From: Podarcis pityusensis
Taxonomy: Eukaryota
Reading direction: 5' to 3' (one strand)
DNA: 64,000 nucleotides
Assembly: GCA_964106645.2 (NCBI GenBank)
Contig: OZ067047.1
Below, piece after piece: positions 3,783 through 63,221 of the stretch (position 1 is its first letter; every line of letters begins with the position of its first letter). The notes below the pieces were generated by a model that searched no databases, was not told where the DNA came from, and worked only from the letters and a program-made list of their open reading frames with translations. The translations under genes and the position numbers were made by a program.

Positions 3783-4287
3783 TAATTTTAGTGAACGTAT
3801 TTCTACCATTGCATCTGTTCACTGTCCAGACGTAATTAAATCTTATAAGATTTACAGAAACCAGTTACAACCAATTTTAGAACAGAACCATCCTTTCCAT
3901 GCACTCATCTGATTCCTCAGGTTACCTAGGAGGCAGGGGCCCACAAATACAAGTGTTGGTGACCAGAAATTTTAATTCTGGCAACCAGAAGGAAAAGCCT
4001 ACTGCATATTCCCACCATGGGAATAACAAAATTCTTTCAAAATCCCTACTAGGGCAATGTCTTTATTAGGTCAACCAAAATATCACAACATAGTGTGCAA
4101 GATTTTGAGTTCTCCAGAACTCTTCAATGGGCTAGATAGTGAACAGAGCAATTGGGGGGTGGGTCATCAGCAATAGAGGAAGGGAGAGCATGCCTCTTTC
4201 AAAACGGTGCCATGCTGTGACAGCATCAATGTCATGACTTGGAGGGAAGGAGATCCTACCATAACATGCAACAAGAAAATAGAGCCT

Positions 4288-4395
4288 ATGGACCTCCAGA
4301 TGCTGGACTTCAACTCCCATCATGCCTGACCGTTATCCATGCATTGAGCTGATGGGAGAGAAAGACCTCTGGAGGGCCACAGGTTCTCCATCCCA
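4288..4395. mobile_element. hAT-type MITE copy
   Basis: cctccagatgctggacttcaactcccatcat ... ctctggagggccacaggttctccatcc; same family as 29922-30059. Confidence 0.7.
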
Positions 4396-5563
4396 GACAT
4401 ACAGGCTTGGCCCTGGCATAATCTGGTTTACAAACCCTAAACCGTAGTTTATGTTCAGATGTAATGAGCAGCTATGGTTTGTCACAAACCATGACAGGAG
4501 GGAACTGAAGAACTCATGGGGGAAAATGAGCACTTACGTCTAAGACATATTCCAGGTTCATTCACACAGGGCCCAAAAGTCAGTAAGCACCAGGGATTTG
4601 TCTGAACAAAGCCAAAGACTTTGCCAGCTGCTTCTCCTATAAAACTATTTCCCAGGACATCAGGTAAAAATGAAAGGCACACAAAGTGCGAGTGGGAAAG
4701 GTGAGCTCTGCTAGCTACAACTGGCTAAGCCCAGCTAACGTTTGTAGACCCCTCTTAGGAGGCTTGAGACTCAAATTCTCAAAGACTGCAGAATACGCTT
4801 CTTACTGCAGATTTACAACCTAGGAGGCCAGGCACAGTCATAAAGCCATAGTGACTATCTGATCCCCTCAAATCTAACAATTTCAGAACTAATATGATTT
4901 TTATTACATTGTTTAGTGTGTCTCTAATGGGATGAGGGCTAATACAACTGGTTTGCCTGGAGCCTAGAAAATGCTGCTCAGGTCATGATGAGCATGGCAT
5001 TCAAAATGTTTGTCTCCGTGATAAACTGCACTGATAATGTACATTTTGACTGCCCCATCTGTCTTCTTTTTGGAAGCTCAGAAAAATTGCAAACAGCTGC
5101 TATTTGGATAAAACAAAATCCTATTACAGATCATTTTTCCTTATTCCTATTAAACATATGGTAAACACAAGACCAAAATATATATGAATCCATACACTGG
5201 GGTTAGTCTTCCAAGTTGCAAATGCATGTTACTTTCAACCAACCTTTCTTTTTTAAAAAATAGCAGATTTGGGAGGCTCCAAATTTTATTCAAGCAGCAG
5301 TGTGGAGAGCGATTAGATTATTTTCCCACCAGCCAGCTTTCCTATGAAAATTGCTCTCTTCTTCATGGAGAGAGCATAGAATTAAAGGGCAAAGGCTGAA
5401 ACCCAGAAACGAGAGTGCATTCTACTCCTTGCTTGAGATAAGCATTGGTAAAGAGAGAGACAATTATTGTCTGCTATCTTGTAAGCAGCTAGCATTGTGT
5501 CCCATAAAAGACTGGCACCTGAACCTTAGTCATCATCCCAAATTCTGTCCTGTATTTCTAGAT

Positions 5564-5700
5564 CAGTGTTCCTCAACCTTAGGTTCCCAGACATTAGTTG
5601 GACTACAACTCCCATCATCCCCAGCCAGTTTAGTCAATGGTCAGGGATGATGGAAATGGTAGTCCAACAACATCTTTGTACCCAAGGTTGCAGAACACTG
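5564..5700. mobile_element. hAT-type MITE
   Basis: TIRs CAGTGTTCCTCAACCTT / AAGGTTGCAGAACACTG; internal ggactacaactcccatcatccc palindrome; TSD not preserved. Confidence 0.8.
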
Positions 5701-14571: not shown

Positions 14572-14669
14572 AATAAATGTACTGTTTGTGAATTTGTATA
14601 AAATAAAGATCCTCTTAAAACATTTTATATTCTTACAGTAAAAGGTTAAACTGATATTTATATAATAAA
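14572..14669 (+). terminator. FBXL14: Probable FBXL14 polyadenylation signals
   Basis: AATAAA at 14572, 14602 and 14664 with neighbouring TGTA motifs and a downstream GT/T-rich tract. Confidence 0.65.
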
Positions 14670-16477
14670 AGAGGAAATATGAAGTATGTTTTTGAAAAAA
14701 AAAGTTGTATCTGTGTTGTCTTTGTCTTTTTAAAAGTCAGGTATATTTGATCAAAACTTGTAAGAAGAGACACATTGCAGAGCTCTTGCCCTGTCTCCTC
14801 TGTCAGTAAGCAGTCAGTAAGCAATTTGGTCCAGTGAATCAAAGGAGTTGGAATGCTTTGTCCTTCTAGTACAGGAGGCTAAACAACTTCAGAATTAGAA
14901 GTTCACAACTGAGCAATTGGTTCCATTTGGAAGGATCTGTTAGTCCTAGCTTATCCTAGTCTGTCTACATGTAATATGTAATTGAACCTGTCCAGTAATA
15001 GCTTTCAGTTCAGTGTTGGGCAAATCACTATTGCTACTAGAGTTTTAATAAGTTTTTTTTTACAGATGCTGAGAACAGTACAGCAATGTTTGGTTTTTCA
15101 TTTTCAACAGAGGCAATATCCTCAGTTGCTGCATTAAATATCAAGTGAATCTGGATAACTAGAAACTTGGATGGCAAAAGGATGAAACCATGCGAATCAT
15201 CCAAGTCTTGAAAATAAAGTGAAAGCCAAACTTGGATGTTAAAAATAGCCTGGGGGGGGGAAGGTTCCCCCCCCCCCCACCTTTTGTACTCATCTGTGAC
15301 TTTTGGCCTGACAGTTTTAAAAAAACTTCTACTGAGGATTTTTCAAAACTGTAGTGGGGGGTTAAGCAGTGCTTATCGAGCATAAAACAAAGCTTTTTCT
15401 TTCTAAGTCATGCAGCATGGCTTTCTCCCCTTCTTTTCTTATTAAAGGGGGGGGTAGAGAGAATGTGAAATGGTGGAAGGAGCAGCAGCCATTGTTCAGG
15501 AAAGTTAAAAGAGGAGCTGTCCTTGCTTGCTTGTTCAGTCATGCATACTGAATCTTGCTGTGTGAGGGTCCCTATGGAAGGGAGGAGGGGTGGTTTCTTT
15601 CCCTCTTTTTAACATTCCTCTCCAGGCCTGGCTGTATTTAAGCTGCTTTTCCTCCATGTGGAGGGCGTGGGTGGGGGATGGTCTGGAGTTCCTGTACATT
15701 TGCATTTCAAGCACTTCCAGGGCTGCTGCAAGCTACTCTCTTCCATTCAAACTGCCCTCTCTACTAGTTGGCTTCTCTGCTAACAGTACCCCAGGTAAAC
15801 TGTCCATAAAACAACTACAGCAGAAAGACAGGCACTTCCTCAGCTACAGTGGAACCGGCAACATCAGTTTCTCCTTCAACACTGAAATACATTCATGTTC
15901 TAACACATGGAAAGGAACAAGATTAAATTTCTGCCTGGGGTTGGGAGGAGGCCATCCTTGCATTTCCTGTTCAGAGTAAGGTTTTACTGGACCTCCACTG
16001 TGCCCTCAAGAGGAAGCTAGCACCTAGATGGCTATTGCTGCTTTTATTTAAAATATTTCATGCTTTCTGCTGGGAGTTCGTCACACAAGCGGCATTGTTC
16101 TCGTTGGCAAAAGCCAGCACAATTGGATCTAATTGAGCCTGACACTACATCCATCTTCTTTTACTTGGAGGGAGGTGTAAGGTCTGTTTCTATGTTTGTT
16201 CCTACTTTTGCCTTTTCTTTTTATAATTTATAATATGTTTATGACTGAAGTGGCAATGAACACTATTAAAATAAGAATGCTTGACTGGTAAGCAGTGATA
16301 GTGGAATCTGTGTTATGTAATGGACACAAGTTCCCTAATACCTTGCTTTGGTGCAAGAGACTGGTAGCAAGTTTTGAAAAACCAGAGCTGAAACTAAAAT
16401 TTTCCTGGGATTCAGAACATTAGCTATTGTGGATTTGTTTTTGTTTTCTTAACCATCTATACTTCACTCTTCTACAG

Positions 16478-18830
16478 AGCAATTTAAACCCTCCATTCTG
16501 TGCCACAGGCCTCCATTTGCACCAGTAGTTCCAACATGAACATGGTCTGTTTCCAGTGAGGAATAGGAAGGATTTATACAAGGGCAACAAGTCAGTTATG
16601 GCTGAGTGAATTTATGTCTGCCAAAATAAAGGACAACTTTTGGTAAGAGAATGGTTGGTACCTTCTAGCTTTGGCTGGAATAATATGTGCAAATATCTGA
16701 AGCCAAACAAACTGCATTCTGTTCTGAAAACCTGGATATGTACAGACATCTCTCATTTGCACAGCATGTGCTCCCTTCATTCGCCTTTTTTTTTTATTAG
16801 ACGAAACTCCCACATATTGGAGCCACAAGTTTCCCCCGTTTCCAATAAAAGGTGGCTGTGCACAAAGCTGACTGGTTGACTCTTGTGCTGGTTGTGAAGC
16901 CATTATCCAACTCACCCAGAGTAATGGATCATTTTAAAAATACCAGTTGACCAGGGGAGAACAAAAAGTTGGAGTCATGTTCTGGTCAGCAGGGAGCAGA
17001 GGATTAACGCCTGTTCAAGAAGAAGGCAGTGCCAATCAGAAAAAACCTGTCCTTCCTGATGAGGAGGAACCTTCTAGTTTCGGGACTTAACCATAGAAAT
17101 TTCCTACAAACAAAAAGCCATTGGCAGATTACATTTGTTGCCAGCAGAATAGTAGTAAAGAATAATATGGAGAGACGGGAAACCTCAACAGTGTCCTTTA
17201 TTGAAAATTTGTGGTAAATAACACAGAAGATGATGTGAACCACCCTCCATGATTGCTTGTACTAATACGGGGGGGGGGGGGTGTCTGCTGACCAGAAGAA
17301 CACTTGGTAACAAAGCTTCCATTCTCAAGTCAAGGGAGTTGAGCAGACAACAAAGGGCTATCCAATAGCAATATTCCCAAAACAGAGAGAAAAAACACTT
17401 TGAAATACTTGTTGCAGGACCCTTCGATGGAAGGATAATTTGGCAAATGTCACATGAAGATGGAGGGTTCACGCACTGAGCATGTCATGGAGGCTTTTAG
17501 TGGTGTGTTGGATCTATGGCAGCCAAGATAGATGCTCTATGCATGGAGAGGGCTGTCATACCCCTTTGGAGGAGATGCCAAGGCTAGGCATTATATGCTA
17601 GGCAATGTGCTCTCAAGCCCCACTTCTGGAAAGTTTTCCCCTGCACCCCAATAGTGAAAGATTTTTCCAGGCAGACTAGGAGTTTGGGGCAAGGGAACAT
17701 TTTGTATAGGCCAAGGGGTCCCCATTGGGTATTGAGCTTGTGTCATTCCTTATTCCTGGGTGACGGTGGACTTGATCTAGTTCTATAGGATTCATCTGTA
17801 TGTACTAGTGAAACCAGGTGTGATTGCAAGCTTCAACAGTGACTTTGAGCTACCCATTTCTTTGAATTATTTTCATGGCCCAAACCAAGCTCACTTAACA
17901 ATGGATAATTCCTATTAGACTGTGAAATGGCCATATGCTGCAATTGATACATTTGGCCTGACCCCATCTGCTGCCAAACTACAGGTAGAAAAAAACATAG
18001 TATCCAAGAGCATATCTAAGCCAATGGGCAGAAACCACAGTCTTACAAGGAAAAACAAATCACATAAATTTTGAGGTGTACATTCCAATAGGTCTTTAAG
18101 CCAAATAATAGTAAGACCTGGAAGACAGAGAACCAACTAATGCCGCCGTAATGGCATTAAACCTCACACTATCAGTTGCAAAGGTGGAAGCAGACAAGGG
18201 TAGACTATCTAAGCTTATATCCACTGCCACAGGCAGAAACTTTAGCCAATTTATATCATTCTTATGGACAACTAACCAGTGCAACTACATGACCTTCTAG
18301 GAGGCCATCCAAACTACTGAAGGGCAATTCTTTCTTACTTAAAGATAAAGGGACCCCTGACTGTTAGGTCCAGTTGCGGATGACTCTGGGGTTGCGGCGC
18401 TCCTCTTGTTTTACTGGCCGAGGGAGCCAGCGTTTGTCCGTAGACAGCTTCCGGGTCATGTGGCCAGCATGACTGAGCTGCTTCTGGCGAACCAGAGCAG
18501 TGCATGGAAACGCCGTTTACCTTCCCGCTGGAACGGTACCTATTTATCTACTTGCTAGGTTGGCAGGAGCAGGGACCGAGCAACGGGAGCTCACCCCGTC
18601 GCGGGGATTCAAACTGCCGACCTTCTGATCGGCAAGCCCTAGGCTCAGTGGTTTAGACCACAGCGCCACCTGCGTCCCGTTTCTTACTTATTTAAACTGC
18701 ACCCACCTGGAGAACCTAACTGGCTTTCTGCAACTGCCTTTGAAAATGCCTCAATGACCTCAGAAGTCTTGGGAGAGGAATCAACTCTCTAAACAGAAGC
18801 AAGCTCCTCATCCTATTGCAATCAGCCTAA
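16478..18830. pseudogene. Candidate decayed protein-coding sequence of unknown family
   Basis: Unique sequence with long frames broken by scattered stops and frameshifts; internal 34-codon repeat with third-position-biased divergence; + strand acceptor at 16477; interrupted by a Sauria SINE; boundaries and strand uncertain. Confidence 0.5.
18342..18679 (-). mobile_element. Full-length Sauria SINE (lacertid type)
   Basis: Minus strand GGGACGCAGGTGGCGCTGTGGTCTAAACC (box A) ... GTTTGAATCCC (box B) ... CAGGGGTCCCTTTATCTTT tail; perfect 11-bp TSD TTTCTTACTTA at 18331-18341 and 18680-18690. Confidence 0.95.
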
Positions 18831-19534
18831 ATTTACATAGGGGTTATGTTCCGGGGATTGCACCTAAAGCCGAAATTGTGTATAGTCAAAACATTGAGTT
18901 CCCAGAACCCCACCCTTTTCTATTTTTTTGCCATGTTCATAAAGCTGAATGTGCACAACCCAAAGGCATATAAATTGTGGGCTTACTGTATAATGACTTC
19001 AGATAAAAGGTGGGGAAATCCTCACTCAGAATTGAATGTGTCTGTCCTGGTCTATCCCGTCTATGCTTGGGGTGAGGAAGCGTCTACTCCACAGGAGGAA
19101 GTTTTAAAACTCTGATTTTATTCACCAGACAGTCCACTGCTCTCTGTTTCTGAGGGAGGAGGGTAGGAAATTTGACAAAGAGAACCCCTTGATGAAATAA
19201 GGTACTGCTACCTCAAGTTGTGCCCATGTGTGATATCTCTTCTCAGGGACAACTTTTTGATTCTCTGAAACTTCTGGTGATAAATGCAAGGGAATTCTCT
19301 TCTTGTCAGGCCTGTATTTGATCTAACTTTCAGAAGATCTATAGACTCCTGGGTTGTACTCTACCATTCAGTAAACTGATGATCAGACGTGCTAGTATTC
19401 AGGGAAGTATGAGGGCATTGCCCAAACTTGTTTTTGTGCCAGATTGTGTGCGCACATGCATGAACACACACAAAAATGCCCAGCTGTCTTTTTAGGAAGA
19501 GCTGTAGCTGTGGCAGAACAGCTGCCCTAGATAT

Positions 19535-19660
19535 AGAAGGTCCCAGGATCTCTCCCCAGCATCTCCAGGCAGGTCTGGAAGAGACCCCTGGCAGATAGCA
19601 TAGACAACACTGAGTCAGATGGAGCAATGATCTGACTCAGCACAAGGCAGCCTCCCACAT
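19535..19660 (+). mobile_element. Squam3-like SINE fragment
   Basis: agaaggtcccagg...gcatctccagg...agacaacactgagtcagatgga...tctgactcagcacaaggcagc. Confidence 0.7.
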
Positions 19661-20888
19661 TCAACTTTCGAAACACCTGGCAAGGAGTGGTAACCTTTCC
19701 ACCAGCTGGAAAGCTTGCATATGGAGAGAAACCCTTATGGGACTGTTTCCAATGTCTCAAGCCCCAGAGTAACAGTGCCACTTCCTACTTACAGAAGAAA
19801 AGACAGGCAGCTGCTTAAGAGGGGAGGGAGTTCAGTTGCCACCCCTCTCCATTTTATTCTTACCTCAAGGCCATGCCTCGGTGATGCTGCCTGGCTCTTG
19901 CAACACACCAGCCCTGTGCCTCATGAGTTGAAATGAGAGAGTTGCTTCCTCTGGAGAGCTGCTCTTCTCTACCGTTTTGCTTTCCCTGAAAAACTGGGAC
20001 TTTTCTGTCCCATTCCAATGCTGCACTTCACAAAAGAGGGAACTGGTTTTCCTGCAAAAAACAAAACAAAACCAGGGCTGCCCTTCCTCTCCATCTAGTA
20101 TTGCAATGAGATTTCAGCTGTGTTCTCCAGCATCCCTCAAGTGAGACACACGAGCGTCTTAGAAATAAAAGCAGCTTTTCATAACAGTGTCTCTGGCTAC
20201 ACTTAATTTAAAGCACTACCACAAGGGACTGCTGATTCCACAAGGGGTTTATGCTACTTTTTCACACTCCACAAGGTGGCAGAGGGACTTTCCAGGAACT
20301 TCCTTTAACTTGCCAACAGTACTGTTAGCATCTTGTTTGCCAAACTTGCTAGGCCTCAGTGCTGCTATTAGGCCTTTGTATATACTCTTAAGGGAAAGGA
20401 TGGCTGCTCCCTCAGGAAAGGAGGGACAGATGACAGCCACCCTTCCGTATGCCTGCTCTGCCTCACTGAGGATATCAGAAGGAAAGGCAGGCTAGGGCAA
20501 CAACCACTCTTGTCACCAGTAACATTCCTGAAGTAAAAAAGGCGGGAAAATGGGAGACACACCAGGGAACCCTTTTAGTTTGCTTTTTACAGTTCTTGCA
20601 CTATTATCTTGGTGTCTGTGGGTTCCAGAAACTACTGGATGCCATTTTGTGAAGAGCTTCAGAATGACATTGTGTACTGCAAAGCAATGCCAAGGTCAGA
20701 TTACAGCAGATAAGCCTTGTCTTGCTTCTAGGCCTGACATCCAGGCAGGTTTGGGACAGAAAAGAGCAGCTCAACAGCAGTGTGTTTTGCTGCAGTACCA
20801 GCTGCGGGGGGAGAAGCCAAGCACAGAGAAGCTGTGTCAGGAAAGGAAGGCCATTTCTCCTGAGCAACTCCTCAGACTTCAAAGAACC

Positions 20889-20948
20889 ATTGAATTGTAG
20901 AGTTGGAATGGACCACAAGGGTCATCAAGTCCAACCTCCTGCAATGCA
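20889..20948 (-). mobile_element. CR1 LINE 3' end fragment
   Basis: gaattgtagagttggaatggaccacaagggtcatcaagtccaacc; matches the start of the 57284-57780 element. Confidence 0.65.
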
Positions 20949-21883
20949 AGACTCGTTTTACCCACTAGAGGCGTCAGAGCATAGTAAAACAAAACAAGCA
21001 AGCAAACAAAATAACCTCTCTCTGCAACCTGACTTGTAATGTTGGCTCCTTACGAAACTTAAACACCATTTCAAGCACCAAGAAGTAAACATGGGCAGTG
21101 GACTGTTGCTTATGAACCAGGCCAGCGTCAGGTAGTTTCTCAATAGAAGCAATTCCCCTTCCAAAATTACATAGGTTGTTGGAGTGGCAGTAGATCTGTT
21201 AATGGAAGTTTGAAAGGAAAAAGCTTTCTGCTTCTTGTGATATGAGGGTCATTACCCAATTAAAAAGGGTATCACTCCTGGGCTGATTAATCCACTTTTC
21301 CAGATGCTTTAGCACCTGTTTTCTCAGCTGAAAAAACTCTGGGTGAAGAGACTTAACCTCAATCATCAAGCAGAAAAAGAAAGCAGGTCTGTTTGAGAAA
21401 GAGAGTTCTGTGCTTCTCTGCTTGGCTCCACCTGTCATTTTGCATGTTAATATTGGAACTGAATTAGTGTTGCCCAAAATTGTTGCTCTGGGCTTTGACA
21501 TGCTACAGAGCTACCTCCATAAAATAGATCTGGTGACAGCCAAAAATGGGAACTCCCATGCTTGATATTGTTCCCTTTCCAGGATTAGTTCAGGAGTTAC
21601 ATCCTTCCTGGCATCCAAACTGGATCCTCCTTCAATTTGGCAGTAGAGAGGAGCATGCTTCTTGCGTGGGATGGCAGATTATGCCCCTGTCAGAAAGCTG
21701 GCCTGGGAGCAAAACATCTCTTCAAGTAAGGACTGGTTCGTTATTTACCCAGAAGGGTAGGCCCTGCTGAAAGCCAAAAGGAGCACAATTTCTGCTTGAG
21801 TTTCCTTGCCAGAAGTCAGTCAGAGAGCTTTGTGGCCAGTCCTAGTGTTCTCTCCTTCATATGACATATTCAGTGGACCTAGA

Positions 21884-22105
21884 CACTGGCGAAGGAATAG
21901 GAGTGCAGGGGGAGTGCACTGCCCCCGGCAGCATGATCCCGGTGGGGTCATCACGGCTGCCCCCCGACCACGCTACATGCCATGCCCCCAGGACGCACGC
22001 CATGCCCCTGTGGGCAGCGCACCATGTCCCCAGGACGTGCGCCAGCCCCACCCCTGCCTGCTCTCTGCCCCCCCCCCGGTGCCGGAGCATGAAGTTCTGC
22101 CACTG
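21884..22105. mobile_element. GC-rich hAT MITE
   Basis: Ends CACTGGCG / TGCCACTG; perfect 8-bp TSD GACCTAGA (21876-21883, 22106-22113); internal catgcccc(a/t)g repeats. Confidence 0.85.
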
Positions 22106-23721
22106 GACCTAGAGCAGAAGTCTTCCTCAAGAGGGACAGATAAACTGCTAAACTGTAGGCTAAAACCAAAGGATCTCTCTCCTTTGTGCATAACAAGAGT
22201 ATCTCTTTATGAAAGTGGTGGTTGCTTATTGGGCCACCAGGCTGCCAATTCAGTAAGAGATTCTGAATGAGTGGAAAGATGAGCACTTAACCAGCAGGTT
22301 CCCACTTGCCAAGCTTGTTGGCTGGCGGGGAAGAAAGTCCTTCCAATGGAGGCTGTGGCTGTGTTGTCCAGAGTTGTTGAACACCCACGCACAAGCTCTC
22401 CACATCCCATTAAGGAGAAACATTATTGTATAATGTGGCCTACAAGTCTCTTTACCAAGCATAGCTACCTTCTGCATGCAAAGCAGATGCTCCACCACTG
22501 ATGCTCTTTCCTGAAAAGCAGCAGGGAGGAAGGTTTTTTTTTTATTTGCAGAAGCACTACAGTGACCAAAAGAACCAAGTGCTGCACCAGGATTTTGGAG
22601 AGATGTCTTGCTACTTCAGGTATCAGTCCCTTTCTGGAGCATGACACCACAGGGGAGGTCCCCTCACTACCTCCAAAAGTGTGTCATGTACTTCTATTAG
22701 CACTGGGTTCTCTTTGAGTCTATGGAAGTAATCCTATGAGTTTTTCTAAAGTGCAGTGTTGCAGGATAAGGTTACAAATCTAAATGTCAAAAGGGAAATG
22801 CAAAATTTAGCAGCTCCCAACATGATTTTGAACAAACGTGGTAGCCTTTACAATGTGCTATGACACAAGGTAGTATAAGGAACAGATATGTCTATATATT
22901 CAAGGAAACACCTACCAAAGAACTGGAAGATTTGGCATTGCAAACTGAGCTAAAAATCTGAAATGTTTTGTGGTGAAAAAGCTTCTACCTTTACATCACT
23001 ATCCTATACATGTTTATTCAGAAGTGAGTCCCACTGTTATTAATGGAGCTTACTCCCAGGAAAGCATATAGATTGTAGCCATAGTTCATAATTTTATTTA
23101 ATTTTTGAACCAATTATGCATCCAGTTAACAAATAGTATTCCACAACAAGGAACTGCATTTGTTTTTCTTTCTTGGAAAAATACTTTTAAAAAGAACAGT
23201 TATTATGACTGCAATAATGCTACTTTCGCACATGCTCTTAGAGGGTGTCAGAGAGTATGATCTCAGGCCCCACCATATTTGATTTTACTGCAAAGTATTG
23301 TATTTTTCCTTGACCTTCCCCCAACCATGATGAGAACAATCTCTCACTATATTATTTCCTAATTGAATAAGGGAGAAAATTTGCCCTCCAGCTGCTGCAA
23401 CTAAACGGACATGTGAGGCAACGCAGAATTCCAAAGTTAACTTGGTTTGGCTGTACGGGGTGGAGTATAGGAACAAAAATTAGAAACCTTTTATATTGAC
23501 CTGTTCCAAGCTGAAATACTTTTGCATTGTCTGATGCCCAGAAAAAGCGGAAACTGCTGCAGTTTGGGGCTGGGAAGTATGTCTGAGCACTGATGCTGTG
23601 TGAAACTCCCATTTGGTTGGTTGGGACTCCAAGGTAAATAGCCTTGTAAAGCATGTAGCCACAAGGTTAGATGGAGTGAGCCCCAAAATGTGTTCACTTA
23701 CCTAAACCTGCTGAGAGAGGG

Positions 23722-57780: not shown

Positions 57781-59169
57781 CCCCCAGCTGGCAGGAGTTC
57801 TCCAAGGCCTCACACAGAGAACTCTCTCTGTCATGTCACCCAAGAGCCTTTTAACCCAGACATGCCAGGGGGTCACTGTCTCCTCTGGCTCAGTTTGACT
57901 TCCAGTGTGTGAACACAATACATTTAAAGAAAACAGTAAATTGCTTGGCAAGATCCGAGCAAAGGCTCATCTAGTCCACACAGATGCCTCTTATACACCC
58001 ACAGAAAGGGCACAAAGACAAGCATAATCTCTCATCAAATGCATCCAGCAGCTGATTCAGCAGCTGTTTTGGACCATGACTCTCATCTGCCCCTTTGCAG
58101 TCCAAAACATCTAGAAGACACCAGGTTGCCAAAGACTTTAAGAGCTGAACTCCGCCTCTGAGATTTCATTACAAACAAATTGAGAGCCTCACTTTCCAAG
58201 GTTATCTTGCCAATGACAGGCCATAAAGTACAGGTGATGAGAGAAGAGTAATTTAAAGAGAGACTTAAAAGCACCTTCCCTCCACAGTGTCTTGAGAGGA
58301 TCAGTGCCACAAGCATCCCTTACAGGTTCTGAAGAAAACAGCAGCTGCCCTCCCGAGGTTGTGAGCAGCTCCTACCTACCCATGAGGCACTCAGTCTCCA
58401 CCTCGTTAAAAGTACTGTAAAGTGCTCAGCGACCACCCAAAGTGCCCTGCATTGGGATGCGGCTGTGCAGGGCAAATTGTTCACCCTGGAGTCTGGGGCT
58501 CCACCAGGCAGGCTGAAGGGAAGCCCCAGCAGCAGCAGAGTAGTCCGAGAGCTCACTCAGCTATCCTCTACCTGACAGGATGGCAAAGCACCCAAGACCA
58601 GTAAATGTACCAGGGAAAAAGACAGCTGGAGGTTGTAAAACAAGTTACGAGAAAGTTGGTTTTCCTTTGGTGGATGAATACTCCAAAGGCTGTGAGTGAA
58701 GAGAAGGGATATTTTCTTCACTCTCAACATTGCAATCCGGTTTGTTTTCTTGCTTGGAAGCTTCCCCAGTCCTCCCCATCCACCAGCAATCCCTGAAACC
58801 CGTCAACAAAAGCAGGATTTGGAGACTGCTCCTGTGTAAGTTTCCTACAGACTTGAGACTGCGATCCTAGTCACCCCAGAGTAGACAGGGTTAAGATAGC
58901 ACTGTACACCCCCCCCCCCCCAGTACAGTGGAGCTACTCTCAAGGGAAAGTGCTGCCTTAAAAGAATAGATGTTGCTGGAGCTCAAACCTGCCAGACTGT
59001 CAGGCAGATGCACCCTCCCTCTTGCAAAAACTTCCCCCTAGTTTAGTCACCCTCCATAAGGATGCCGGACTGCAGCTGCCAATAATCATTCCTGATCATT
59101 GGCTACGCTGGCTGGGGCCGATGGGCGTTGGAGCCCAACAACATCTGGAGGGGCACAGGTTACCCACCC

Positions 59170-60560
59170 TGGTTCGAGCAGTGTGGCGACCAGCCCTCGG
59201 CAACAAAAGCGCGCTGCGCCCGCTCGCCAAGACGCTCTTTCCTTGCTACTCAAAAAAGGTAGAACTCTCCTCCTCCGCTTGAAGCAGGGCTAAATTCCGG
59301 CCCGGGCCGAGACACCAACCAGGACCAGCTTTTTAAGGCGTCTCCGCAGGAGTTAAGTCCCGCCGAGTCCAGTGGGACCCCCGGCCAGCGCGCCAAGAGC
59401 CACAGCCAGCGCAAAGCCCGCCCTCCGCCACAAGCCCGCTCCTTGTCCGGCCGCGGCGGCGAGGCGCTTCACCCCGGTCCTGCCCAGGGGAGCCGGGACA
59501 CGTGTTTGCGTCTCCTTAGGGCAAGAACGCGTGAAGGCGGGTTCTGAGGGAGAGGGAACTTTGTTTCAGCGAAAAATAGCAATGCGCGCACACTTCCCTC
59601 CCCACAACTCCCAGTCAGGGAGGCCAGGCGCCGGGGCTCTTCGGACTGGGCTCCTTCCTTCTTCCCCTCTCCGGCGCCCCGGCGGTGACAAGAGCGCCTG
59701 CCCGGGCCCTCCGGCGCTCGCCCTGCGAGGGGCGCCCCCTACCTGCATCTCCGCGCTTTCCAACCCCGCGACGTCGACGGCTGCGGCAAGTTTGCCTCTC
59801 GGTGTGTGTATGCGAGTGGGTGTTCTCCTCGCCCCGCTCGAGTTAGTCCCGGCGCTGCGCAGGCAGCAGGTGAGTCGCCCTTTGGCAGCGCGGAAGGCGC
59901 CGGGCCAGGCAAGGTCAGCTCGGGAGCCACCGGGGACGCGCCCCCGCGCTTCTCTCCAAAGGGCTGGATGCGCCCCTCTCCGCTCGCGCGCTTCTGGCTG
60001 GCTGGCCGGCTGCAGCAGCAACAGGGGCAATAGGCATCCACCGTCGCCGACGCTCCCTCCCTCCCTCCTGCCCGCGGCGGGCGGCTGGCTGGCTGGCGCT
60101 CTCGCTTTCTTTCGGGCTGCTGCTGCAGAAGGGATTTTGCACCAGACAACTTTTAGGCCGGTAGGAGTTTTGACTACAGCGGCGACACTAGCAGCAGCAA
60201 GACGGCGCCGACTGTAGTGCAAAGGGTCGGAGCAAGGCGAGCCGAACCGATCCCGGGGGCTCAGGCAGCAACCTCCGCCCCGCCTCCCCCCACGCCCCGC
60301 GCCCGCCTCTCCCTCCCTCCCAAGCACCCCCCCCGCCTACCCGCCCCGCGCGGCAGCAGCGCCGGCGATGGGCACCACCCCGGGGCAATCCCCTTCAACC
60401 CGCCCCCTCGCGACACACACCGTGTATATAGCCCTCGCTGTCATCCTGTCTCATCCAAACGCAGCCCGAGTCACCCCTCCTCGCCACTTTAGATTGCCAC
60501 CCTTCTTGCTGGCGTGGCGACACTGCTGTCCCGTGAGGAACTTCATTGACCTTCCTTTTC
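59170..60560 (-). promoter_or_regulatory. CpG-island promoter / first exon, probably a distal WNT5B promoter
   Basis: ~1.4 kb CpG island; GC boxes at ~60275-60350; TATA-like element at 60425-60430; minus-strand donor at 59742; WNT5B assignment rests on synteny only. Confidence 0.6.
59743..59748 (-). CDS. Putative 2-codon coding end (Met-Gln) of a first exon, candidate long WNT5B isoform
   Basis: Minus strand gcggagATGCAG|GTAGGG; parallels the 2-codon (MK) first coding exon of WNT5A-long as recalled. Confidence 0.4.
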
Positions 60561-63221
60561 ATTAAAGCCCTGACCCCTTCGCTCTCCCCAGTCTTCCCTA
60601 CTAATCTCCTCTCCTTCCGTGGAGCACCCCCTCTTCCTGCTGCCTCATTCCCAACTCTCCAAGATTCCCCCTAGCCTGGAGCTTGCTCCTGTTCTCACAT
60701 ATACTTGACATTCTTTCCTCCCCAACAGATTAAACTAGCACACTCTCAACACCACTGAGTTCCCCACTACCACCTGACCCCACCACTTGTCCCTTCCACT
60801 AACATACCATCCAATCCATCACCAGGACACATCTCACCACCACCACCACCGCCCCCCACATGAGTCCCTTGATGCAGACACATGCTAAAAGTTGACACTC
60901 AGTGCCTTTCACCCCTAGTTCCTCCCTGTTGTAGACTCAGCTGCTTCAGAGGAGCAAAAGGCAGATGAACTGCTCTTTCACTTCCCATGCGCGCGCACAC
61001 ACTGCTGTAGAGCTTTGCAGTGCCTTCAACTCCTTTGGAAAAGCAGGCGTCTGCAGTCCAACAATATTCACTTCATAGGATCAGATATGCAGGCTCTTAA
61101 AAACTGACTTGGGAGGCTTCAACAGTTTCAGGAACTGGGAATCCATGATCTGGGATGGGATGAGATGGGAATGAAAGAATGGAGCTCTAGCAGATGGTGA
61201 CAATGCTTTTGTGGCACCATAAATGAGCGCAGAAAGAAGGAACGCCATGGTACAGCTGCATCAACACAACTGGACGCCTTCATGTGCCTCAGCTGCAACA
61301 AACTATGTCTTTCTCATATCTCTTTCTACAGCCACAGCAGGTGCTGTAACTCTCCAATGGTTTGACTTTACCCCTGAAGGCGCACTCTTTCATTGTCTCC
61401 AGAGACAAACAGATGCTAACCAAAGACGTACGAATTTATTGTGGCATAAGCTTTTGTGGATATTACCTATAAGTTGACATGGAGATGTGTGGGCGGTAGA
61501 TAGGATTGTATGAAATGGCGTCAAATGGCAATGAAATGTCTGTGGCAATTCAATCAAAGCTTAAACATACACAGAATAAATACGTTAGCTACTCATTACA
61601 GCAGTAATTGAGGATAAACACAAGCACTCCAGTATCCCTAGTGTTTAACGCTGTCAAGCAGTGTCCCTAGCAAAGGAATTGCCCATTTTGAAGCTGGGAT
61701 TGTAATACAAATATTTTAGGTGGAAGAATATCTTTGCCTACCTGCCTACAAATGAGAAACTACAATGATAAAGGAGCAGGAATTTCAATGCCTGTCAACC
61801 TAATATTAAGAACATAAACATAAGAAGAGCCTGTGGGATCAGGCCAATGGCCCATTCAGTCCCGTGTCCTGTTCTCACAGTGGCCAACCACTGGGAAACC
61901 CATTGCCTCTGGGAAACCCGCAAGCAGAATCTGAGTACAAGAGTACTCTCCCTTTGTGTGGTCTCTATTAAGCAAAGTTAAATGACTAAGTTGTGCTATG
62001 CCAGCTAACTCTTGCAACCTCAATCAGAAGTACCGTAAGTACCCCTGAGTTTAATGAGCCTTACCTCACTTATGGATAAGATTGTCAGTGGCATCAGTTT
62101 GTATGCTGTGCATTTCTGTTCAGATCTCACTTGCCACTGATTTTTTGTCTGGTATCAATGACTATCTTTAAGTAAGCTTGTAAAATATAAGCAGAGCACA
62201 TCTATTACCATGTGTGGGCCCCACTGTAGTAGAAGCAGATGTTTCCTTGCACTCCTGCCCATGTGTTCCCCACTGTATTGTGAGTGTGAATTTTGACACT
62301 AGCATTCTTTTCTATGGACATTCATGTGTTTTGCAGCTTGAATTCCTGGCAGTGACTCCTGTGGCACTGTATCAGTTTTCATCCAAGTACTTCAACTTAC
62401 CTAGATGGTGGATAGGAATTGTATTTGTTTTCTCATTGCTCCAACAAGCATTATTGATCTCACATGATGCTGGTGCCACAAACACTCATCAAAAGTGTCC
62501 CAAGAGGATTTTGCCCACCATTGATACCCTAGGACTTAACATTCCCCTTTGCTGGGGAAAGAAACATGACACTGCCTGAAGCAGGGATTGCCAAATTTAA
62601 AGGAGAAGCACCAGCCAAATTGCATGGAACCGCAGTTGCACCAATACTTGCAAATTGCTCCAGCCAAATTGCACTGGTTCCAGTTCTGTAGTTCAGATAT
62701 ATTGCCTGAAGATGGAACTGGAATGCCAATACAATACACAAACAAATACACGTATCTTTGATTAGGGGACACTGATCAGTCTATCCTCTTGGGCTGACTG
62801 GGAAGTATCTGTTCCCTTCCTCATGTGTGTGACAAGAAGAATGCTGTCCTAAGAACACCTGCAGGAAAGTATACTATTGAATTAGTAGCACTTGCTTTCT
62901 GGTAAATTATCAGAGACATACTGTGGCTATATCTAGAAATCCACCAGTATAAGGCATACAGTGCTGGACTCTAGACAAATAACTTCAATCTATGCCTCAA
63001 GAACGTACACATAAGAGCCAACATGAATACCAAAAGAGTAGCACATGGAAGCAATGAGGCAATACACTGGGCAGTTGACGAGCCGATCCGTTCATTTTAT
63101 TGTCTCTCTGACAATAGTAATCTGCTTTTCAAGACCTAGCTTGGGCGTCTGCATTCTGGCACATGTACTGTGAAACATTTCCATAAAGCAAGAAGAGTTT
63201 GGAGAGGGAACTCCCCTGATT

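Follow-up and report, generated by a model that had tools for sequence, protein, structure and literature searches.

A decayed and probably internally deleted DIRS1-like retrotransposon copy downstream of FBXL14 in the lizard Podarcis pityusensis

DIRS1-like tyrosine recombinase (YR) retrotransposons have been described from Anolis (AcDIRS1 and AcDIRS2) and Xenopus. In the available portions of the reports on them (PMC3266345, PMC9210276) these elements have a LAP2alpha gag, a 3' YR as well as an internal complementary region (ICR) just inside an inverted terminal repeat (ITR), arranged in the order gag, YR, ICR, ITR. Pairing between the ITR ends and the ICR is stated to produce a circular junction, after which the YR integrates the element without target duplication (PMC3266345, in part). 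The LAP2alpha domain is DIRS ORF1 according to the relevant section of PMC4495291, and the term non-autonomous DIRS occurs in PMC9940879. The block of lizard DNA analyzed here shares the LAP2alpha gag, the 3' YR and the ICR just inside the ITR with the Anolis and Xenopus elements. Its ITR (about 110-165 nt) and ICR arm (about 40-60 nt) fall within the AcDIRS range given in that part of PMC3266345 (ITR 26+140, ICR 40-58), and its element span of 5.6 kb is similar to those elements as the same portions of PMC3266345 and PMC9210276 describe them. Unlike them, the block lacks RT, RNase H and MT, retains only the last 134 of 326 YR positions, has its catalytic His replaced and all of its ORFs shattered, and is preceded by about 3 kb of unassigned 5' sequence.

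The block lies at 16478-18830 of a 64,000-nt stretch of Podarcis pityusensis contig OZ067047.1 (assembly GCA_964106645.2), referred to here as the window. An earlier note, made from the sequence alone, had called it a ghost gene and offered three origins: a lost exon of a nested gene, a retrocopy, or an old viral or TE ORF. The last of these stood, as an old TE ORF, and the block was once protein-coding; the headline of a lost exon fell to the dispersed copies and neutral orthologues described below. We give a probability of about 0.92 to the reading that the block represents the decayed 3' half of a minus-strand DIRS1-like YR retrotransposon, likely from an internally deleted family that would have been copied by the enzymes of intact relatives; its parts on that strand are gag, recombinase tail, ICR and terminal repeat. 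Direct support comes from copies that are dispersed and collinear, from homology to gag and YR in the order of DIRS, from a terminal inverted structure and from neutral change between species. The stretch 16950-18822, with its SINE removed, is a single copy of an old dispersed repeat, and a lost host gene is largely ruled out there. The block has no protein function or sign of a job today. No description of its DIRS family was found in the literature, to which the search was confined.

Five other loci matched the block collinearly with 60-67% identity, and five more matched its continuation to 22542 (19700-22542 only); four loci carried end sequence only. These copy counts are lower bounds. 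The own-genome DNA search gave two other loci, more were reached by walking from these, and genome searches with the C8 and C17 copies were swamped by inserted high-copy repeats. The copy at C9:32.27 Mb aligned to window positions 16977-18126 (E 3e-76), then to 18681-18822 and 19809-20012; that at C8:70.45 Mb to 16949-18155 and 20499-20690; that at C9:51.25 Mb (C9b) to 16959-17326 and 19645-20880; that at C2:104.19 Mb to 16979-17641; and that at C10:53.93 Mb to 17329-17934. The copies have a common left edge at about 16950, the alignments of four other copies starting at 16949-16979. Identity among six aligned copies was 53-68%, with a mean pairwise K80 of 0.55 over 14 pairs. Hence the statement that the SINE was the only recognizable TE does not hold from about 16950 on, where the block is itself a dispersed repeat, and this multi-copy status argues against the ghost-gene reading.

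On the far side of the SINE the element continues on the minus strand at 18691-18822 (collinear with positions 5472-5605 of the C9 copy, E 1.6e-10), and its 5' body, with later insertions, occupies 19641-22542 on the same strand with collinear pieces in eight other loci. Between them a separate mid-copy repeat, with a match in one fetched locus (L124) and a depth of about 4000-5000, was inserted later at 18825-18996. The 5' body, at about 3 kb, is longer than the usual gag N-terminus, and gag, pol and YR profiles all scored at null across it. RT, MT and YR motifs picked out by eye in 19600-22500 were unsupported by the profiles. A DNA profile of the family gave a best E of 0.03 against 32 DIRS and Ngaro loci, with an E of 0.32 for a match of the YR end to one DIRS remnant (L111).

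The proteins once encoded were traced with profiles. DIRS remnants of the lizard's own genome were collected through PF11560 and used to fetch database relatives, and the resulting profiles were scored on the aligned copies by a custom frameshift-aware codon model with its own gap costs, of which two settings were tried. All 10 gag proteins scanned carried the LAP2alpha label (two of these also RVT_1), and three of the five YR proteins carried a weak Phage_integrase label. The profile of squamate DIRS YR proteins (e.g. Crotalus LOC120297529, P0005; 121 relatives) could be aligned with the block from the LDVRRAL region as far as GRRVLQ at the C-terminus; these proteins come from young open-frame elements and their direct BLAST match to the window was not significant.

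The decayed C-terminal part of a DIRS1-type recombinase lies at 17403-17769 on the minus strand and covers profile positions 193-326 of 326, so that the match ends exactly at the YR C-terminus. The six-copy alignment scored 51.2 bits against a shuffled-profile null of 17.9 +/- 2.1 (maximum 26.1 of 200), and the other-strand, reversed and complemented controls gave 16-18 bits. Leaving out the window copy gave 49.6 bits and a second profile gave 53.2. Under strict gap costs none of the copies taken singly clearly exceeded the null (window 19.1, null maximum 21.3), and with looser costs three of six did (window 32.4 against 29.9, C8 39.2, C10 31.1). In all five copies that cover the HSTR motif, its His is replaced by Leu or Phe, and along the YR path the copies showed no bias by codon position (0.385/0.411/0.387).

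Upstream of the recombinase tail on the same strand, at 17945-18308, is a decayed DIRS1 gag with its LAP2alpha-like domain (profile 177-296 of 412). The window alone scored 30.1 bits, compared with a null maximum of 25.4 of 100, and other copies scored similarly (C9 29.8, C8 33.2, C8 plus C9 54.7, all three with the window 51.3). Controls gave 14-21 bits and the gag signal was confined to the minus strand. Coding had previously been placed on the plus strand with no family assigned; gag and YR are both on the minus strand, and the family can now be named as DIRS1-like.

Standard BLAST, HMMER and Pfam searches failed to detect the gag and YR match. Pfam gave no significant match among 48 six-frame read-throughs, tblastn of 13 DIRS proteins on the window gave a best E of 0.16 (at the YR end), and hmmsearch of the six frames as well as a first frameshift scan lacking local base-composition correction stayed at null level. 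A homologue search using gag among longer proteins was empty. The ancient DIRS protein fossils of amniotes, as presented in the accessible part of PMC9004415, were likewise missed by standard searches and found by frameshift-aware alignment; unlike those described there, the block has no sign of conservation or exaptation.

Two other element classes were considered. LINE-1 ORF1, suggested by eye, was dropped once the stretch resembling it aligned to YR; a search with PF02994 gave no matches in the genome or in controls and was therefore uninformative. Young Ngaro-like elements of this genome are also YR retrotransposons, but a Ngaro-type YR profile built from 14 ORFs of the genome scored 17.9-19.9 on the block, which is null level (null mean 17.7-20.3).

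The gag and YR matches are only about 175 nt apart. The RT and RNase H/MT halves of the pol profile scored 20.1 and 17.5 in the block, where the null averages 20, and were at null in 18690-22600 too. Moreover, the C8 and C9 copies align with the window across the gag-YR junction (17769-17945). As RT, RNase H and MT are missing and the junction is common to copies, the family was likely non-autonomous, and since pol was not found we class this fossil, which belongs to a known kind of TE, with internally deleted derivatives of DIRS1-like elements and not with complete ones. We infer amplification in trans from a master that carried a deletion. It would no longer have had RT, RNase H, MT or the front part of YR while retaining the ITR and ICR as cis signals; intact DIRS elements would have reverse-transcribed its RNA, and their recombinase would have integrated the deleted copies. 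All copies would then have decayed to their present divergence and received the SINE and other repeats afterwards.

The copies could instead derive from autonomous DIRS elements in which RT, RNase H and MT were lost or rearranged in some other manner, through separate deletions, with pol hidden in 19641-22542, or with two adjacent elements. Such an origin would suit the length of the 5' body, which has no protein assignment, and the weak match that a snake YR gave by tblastn at 20512-20309 (E 0.93). It is nevertheless unlikely given the junction common to C8, C9 and the window, the null pol scores in the block and the 5' body, and the replaced YR His in five of five copies.

The ends of the element are consistent with the DIRS1-like reading, though too decayed for the terminal NTT trinucleotides and the 3-bp circular junction of complete DIRS1-like elements to be read. 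The right (3') ITR, whose edges are approximate, lies at 16950-17100 on the minus strand, where the copies start, and is found inverted in the C17 copy: there the sequence of the element's window-left end recurs in inverted orientation at the far side of the body (profile 100-206, E 7e-13). Inverted terminal repeats are thus present at the family level through the C17 copy. The window retains only the right one, and an end profile detected no second ITR within it. The ICR, at 17285-17326 on the minus strand, is the reverse complement of the terminus 16957-16992, with arms of 20 nt that match at 85%, and it is correctly placed in five copies. Pairing exceeded the shuffle maximum in two of these five, C2 (46/60) and C9 (60/94), and did not in the window, C8 or C9b. 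The 17-mer at the ICR core occurs nine times in the genome; its reversed control does not occur. This arrangement of ITR and ICR is the one described for DIRS1-like elements, here in minus-strand orientation. For TE annotation the locus is a small gain, an old deleted DIRS family showing which cis signals (ITR and ICR) a hitch-hiker retained.

What had been read as long protein-like frames on the plus strand did not differ from chance: the three plus frames have 28, 28 and 35 stops in 621 codons and the best of six frames in shuffled sequences averages 28.5, while the minus frames have 25, 31 and 22. The longest ORF is 113 aa (p=0.20). The quoted peptides do exist, DETPTYW at 16800, GLTPVQEE at 17001, FYRIHLY at 17781 and TVKWPYA at 17919 (all in one plus frame) and NWLSATA at 18718. 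They are antisense read-outs, and NWLSATAF... is that of the element continuation at 18691-18822. A plus-strand origin without any link to TEs, as a retrocopy or an exon lost by the host, could claim these readable peptides, an acceptor-like site at 16478 (both judged from sequence only) and the single-copy state of 16478-16940. We consider it extremely improbable given the dispersed copies, the minus-strand gag and YR homology, the undepleted stops and a repeat unit (unit 2, below) that has no protein match elsewhere in the genome and uninformative Atlas matches; for 16950-18830 it is already largely refuted.

The codon-structured repeat pairing 17937-18041 with 18142-18246, which had been put forward as the strongest sign of coding, is indeed beyond chance (BLOSUM 67, a score reached in 0 of 150 shuffles). 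Each of its two units matches the gag helix when read in a minus frame. Unit 1 (17937-18041) is the helix 'DASLD..QFAARAMA' at its canonical place and aligns with C9 (140/204) and C8 (132/193), whereas unit 2 (18142-18246), a second copy of the helix that replaces the canonical upstream segment, aligns to unit 1 of C9 (77/117) and C8 (66/105). As neither of these copies has a self-repeat of the helix, the second one is peculiar to the window copy; most simply, it recombined in from a related element. The plus-frame codon pattern is compatible with a minus-strand gag because one minus frame shares its third codon positions, and for the same reason the repeat leaves the strand undecided. Genome scans should heed that such a repeat fixes the wobble position and not the strand. 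In the plus frame, unit 2 found only itself in an own-genome protein search, and the ESM Atlas returned only short hypothetical proteins and was uninformative.

The window copy might once have been co-opted, either through selection on the duplicated gag helix or as an antisense plus-strand exon, and later lost, which would make it a ghost exon built from a DIRS fossil. There is precedent in the mammalian TMPO and ZNF451 LAP2alpha exons, which in the portion of PMC4495291 available share the DIRS gag domain with the block; those are co-opted and under purifying selection, whereas the block copy is broken and evolving neutrally. The restriction of unit 2 to the window copy agrees with co-option, as do 11 synonymous differences between the units in the plus frame versus five in the minus frame and mismatches of 11/11/23 by codon position (permutation p 0.003-0.007). 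However, that test was chosen post hoc on 35 codons, the 205-nt spacing of the units breaks frame, constraint between species was not seen, and the window copy is as distant from the other copies as these are among themselves (K80 0.45-0.60). Unit 2 also resembles C9 unit 1 (66%) more than it does unit 1 of the window copy (57%), which a related-element origin would predict. We therefore regard past co-option as very unlikely. The third-position excess is absent between unit 1 and C8 or C9, and that between units 1 and 2 is not fully explained. A fuller scenario, equally hard to credit, would have an ancient, possibly undescribed non-autonomous lizard DIRS family amplified in the form of a fusion of gag to the YR tail that carried about 3 kb of 5' cargo, the second gag helix added in the window copy being transiently co-opted next to FBXL14 under coding constraint and later lost (compare mammalian LAP2alpha).

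In DNA read runs of seven organisms roughly half of the words in the block, or more, are present, and four runs were compared. In one run (X16), 23 of 1088 sites differed in 17281-18369 (2.1%) and 17 of 849 downstream (2.0%). Among the X16 substitutions listed inside the block, 10 of 34 were synonymous in the frames proposed by the earlier note, compared with 9.6 +/- 2.6 under neutral placement; because the species compared are close (about 2% apart), this neutrality test is weak for ancient constraint. Single-nucleotide indels were found at 16688, 17039, 17719 and 18719, each in one or two runs. Hence orthologous DNA shows frame-breaking indels and no synonymous bias, against the ghost-gene reading, and with a multi-copy block the suggestion that other reptiles may have the gene intact finds no support. 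As copies are 0.55 apart and related species about 0.02 at the locus, the insertion is roughly 25 times older than the species split, a rough ratio that assumes equal rates and similar masters. As neutral TE debris the block carries little weight for host biology. The region 15300-17281, downstream of FBXL14, differed in X16 at 21 of about 1980 sites (1.1%), about half the rate of the DIRS part, possibly reflecting mild non-coding constraint, though the numbers are small.

The SINE reported within the block was confirmed at 18342-18679 on the plus strand, flanked by an 11-nt target duplication, TTTCTTACTTA, at 18331-18341 and 18680-18690. We take it to be of Sauria type. It is a young high-copy insertion into the DIRS fossil, with matches in many fetched loci and a summed contig depth of 7-13 million versus 30-60 in its flanks. 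To the left of the element, 16478-16940 is single-copy DNA that holds DETPTYW and matched only itself in the own genome: no match was found in the 159 loci searched of 164 fetched (five self loci were left out), and 16250-16945 gave no other copy. Run X16 has indels of 15, 1 and 6 nt within 16478-16940. A weak protein-level self-similarity of 60 nt in this flank (16491-16550 and 16712-16771, LHSV...CT...MC, BLOSUM 48, reached by 1 of 150 shuffles) is perhaps another old fossil. A cluster of AATAAA at 14572, 14602 and 14664, about 2.2 kb past the FBXL14 stop (12395; the gene name is that of the earlier note), likely marks a 3' end upstream of the block. A second GC-rich island (GC 0.61-0.66) at 59000-61000 is a possible promoter.

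Searches of the own genome gave several further observations. Many young YR retrotransposons have intact ORFs, a YR of 318-333 aa plus a downstream ORF (L080-L094; 103 scored matches, the eight best of them on small contigs); we assume these to be Ngaro-like, the downstream ORF being presumably an SGNH hydrolase. On the small contigs C48, C88, C156, C204, C216, C222 and C331 (L042-L049), phage-integrase matches were strong (E to 1e-24) and far exceeded those of the lizard elements; the assembly may include DNA of a symbiont or of contaminating bacteria there. At C10:52.23 Mb (L110, 7620-5725, minus strand) an intact 632-aa ORF has a LAP2alpha-like gag domain, unlike most other PF11560 matches, which lie in short or broken frames; RT or YR motifs were not found nearby, and the ORF is a candidate domesticated DIRS gag in the lizard. 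Finally, the DIRS remnant at C13:55.50 Mb (L111) has gag joined to a YR tail, a second gag-YR deletion form, and is followed immediately downstream by a same-strand C2H2 zinc-finger exon.
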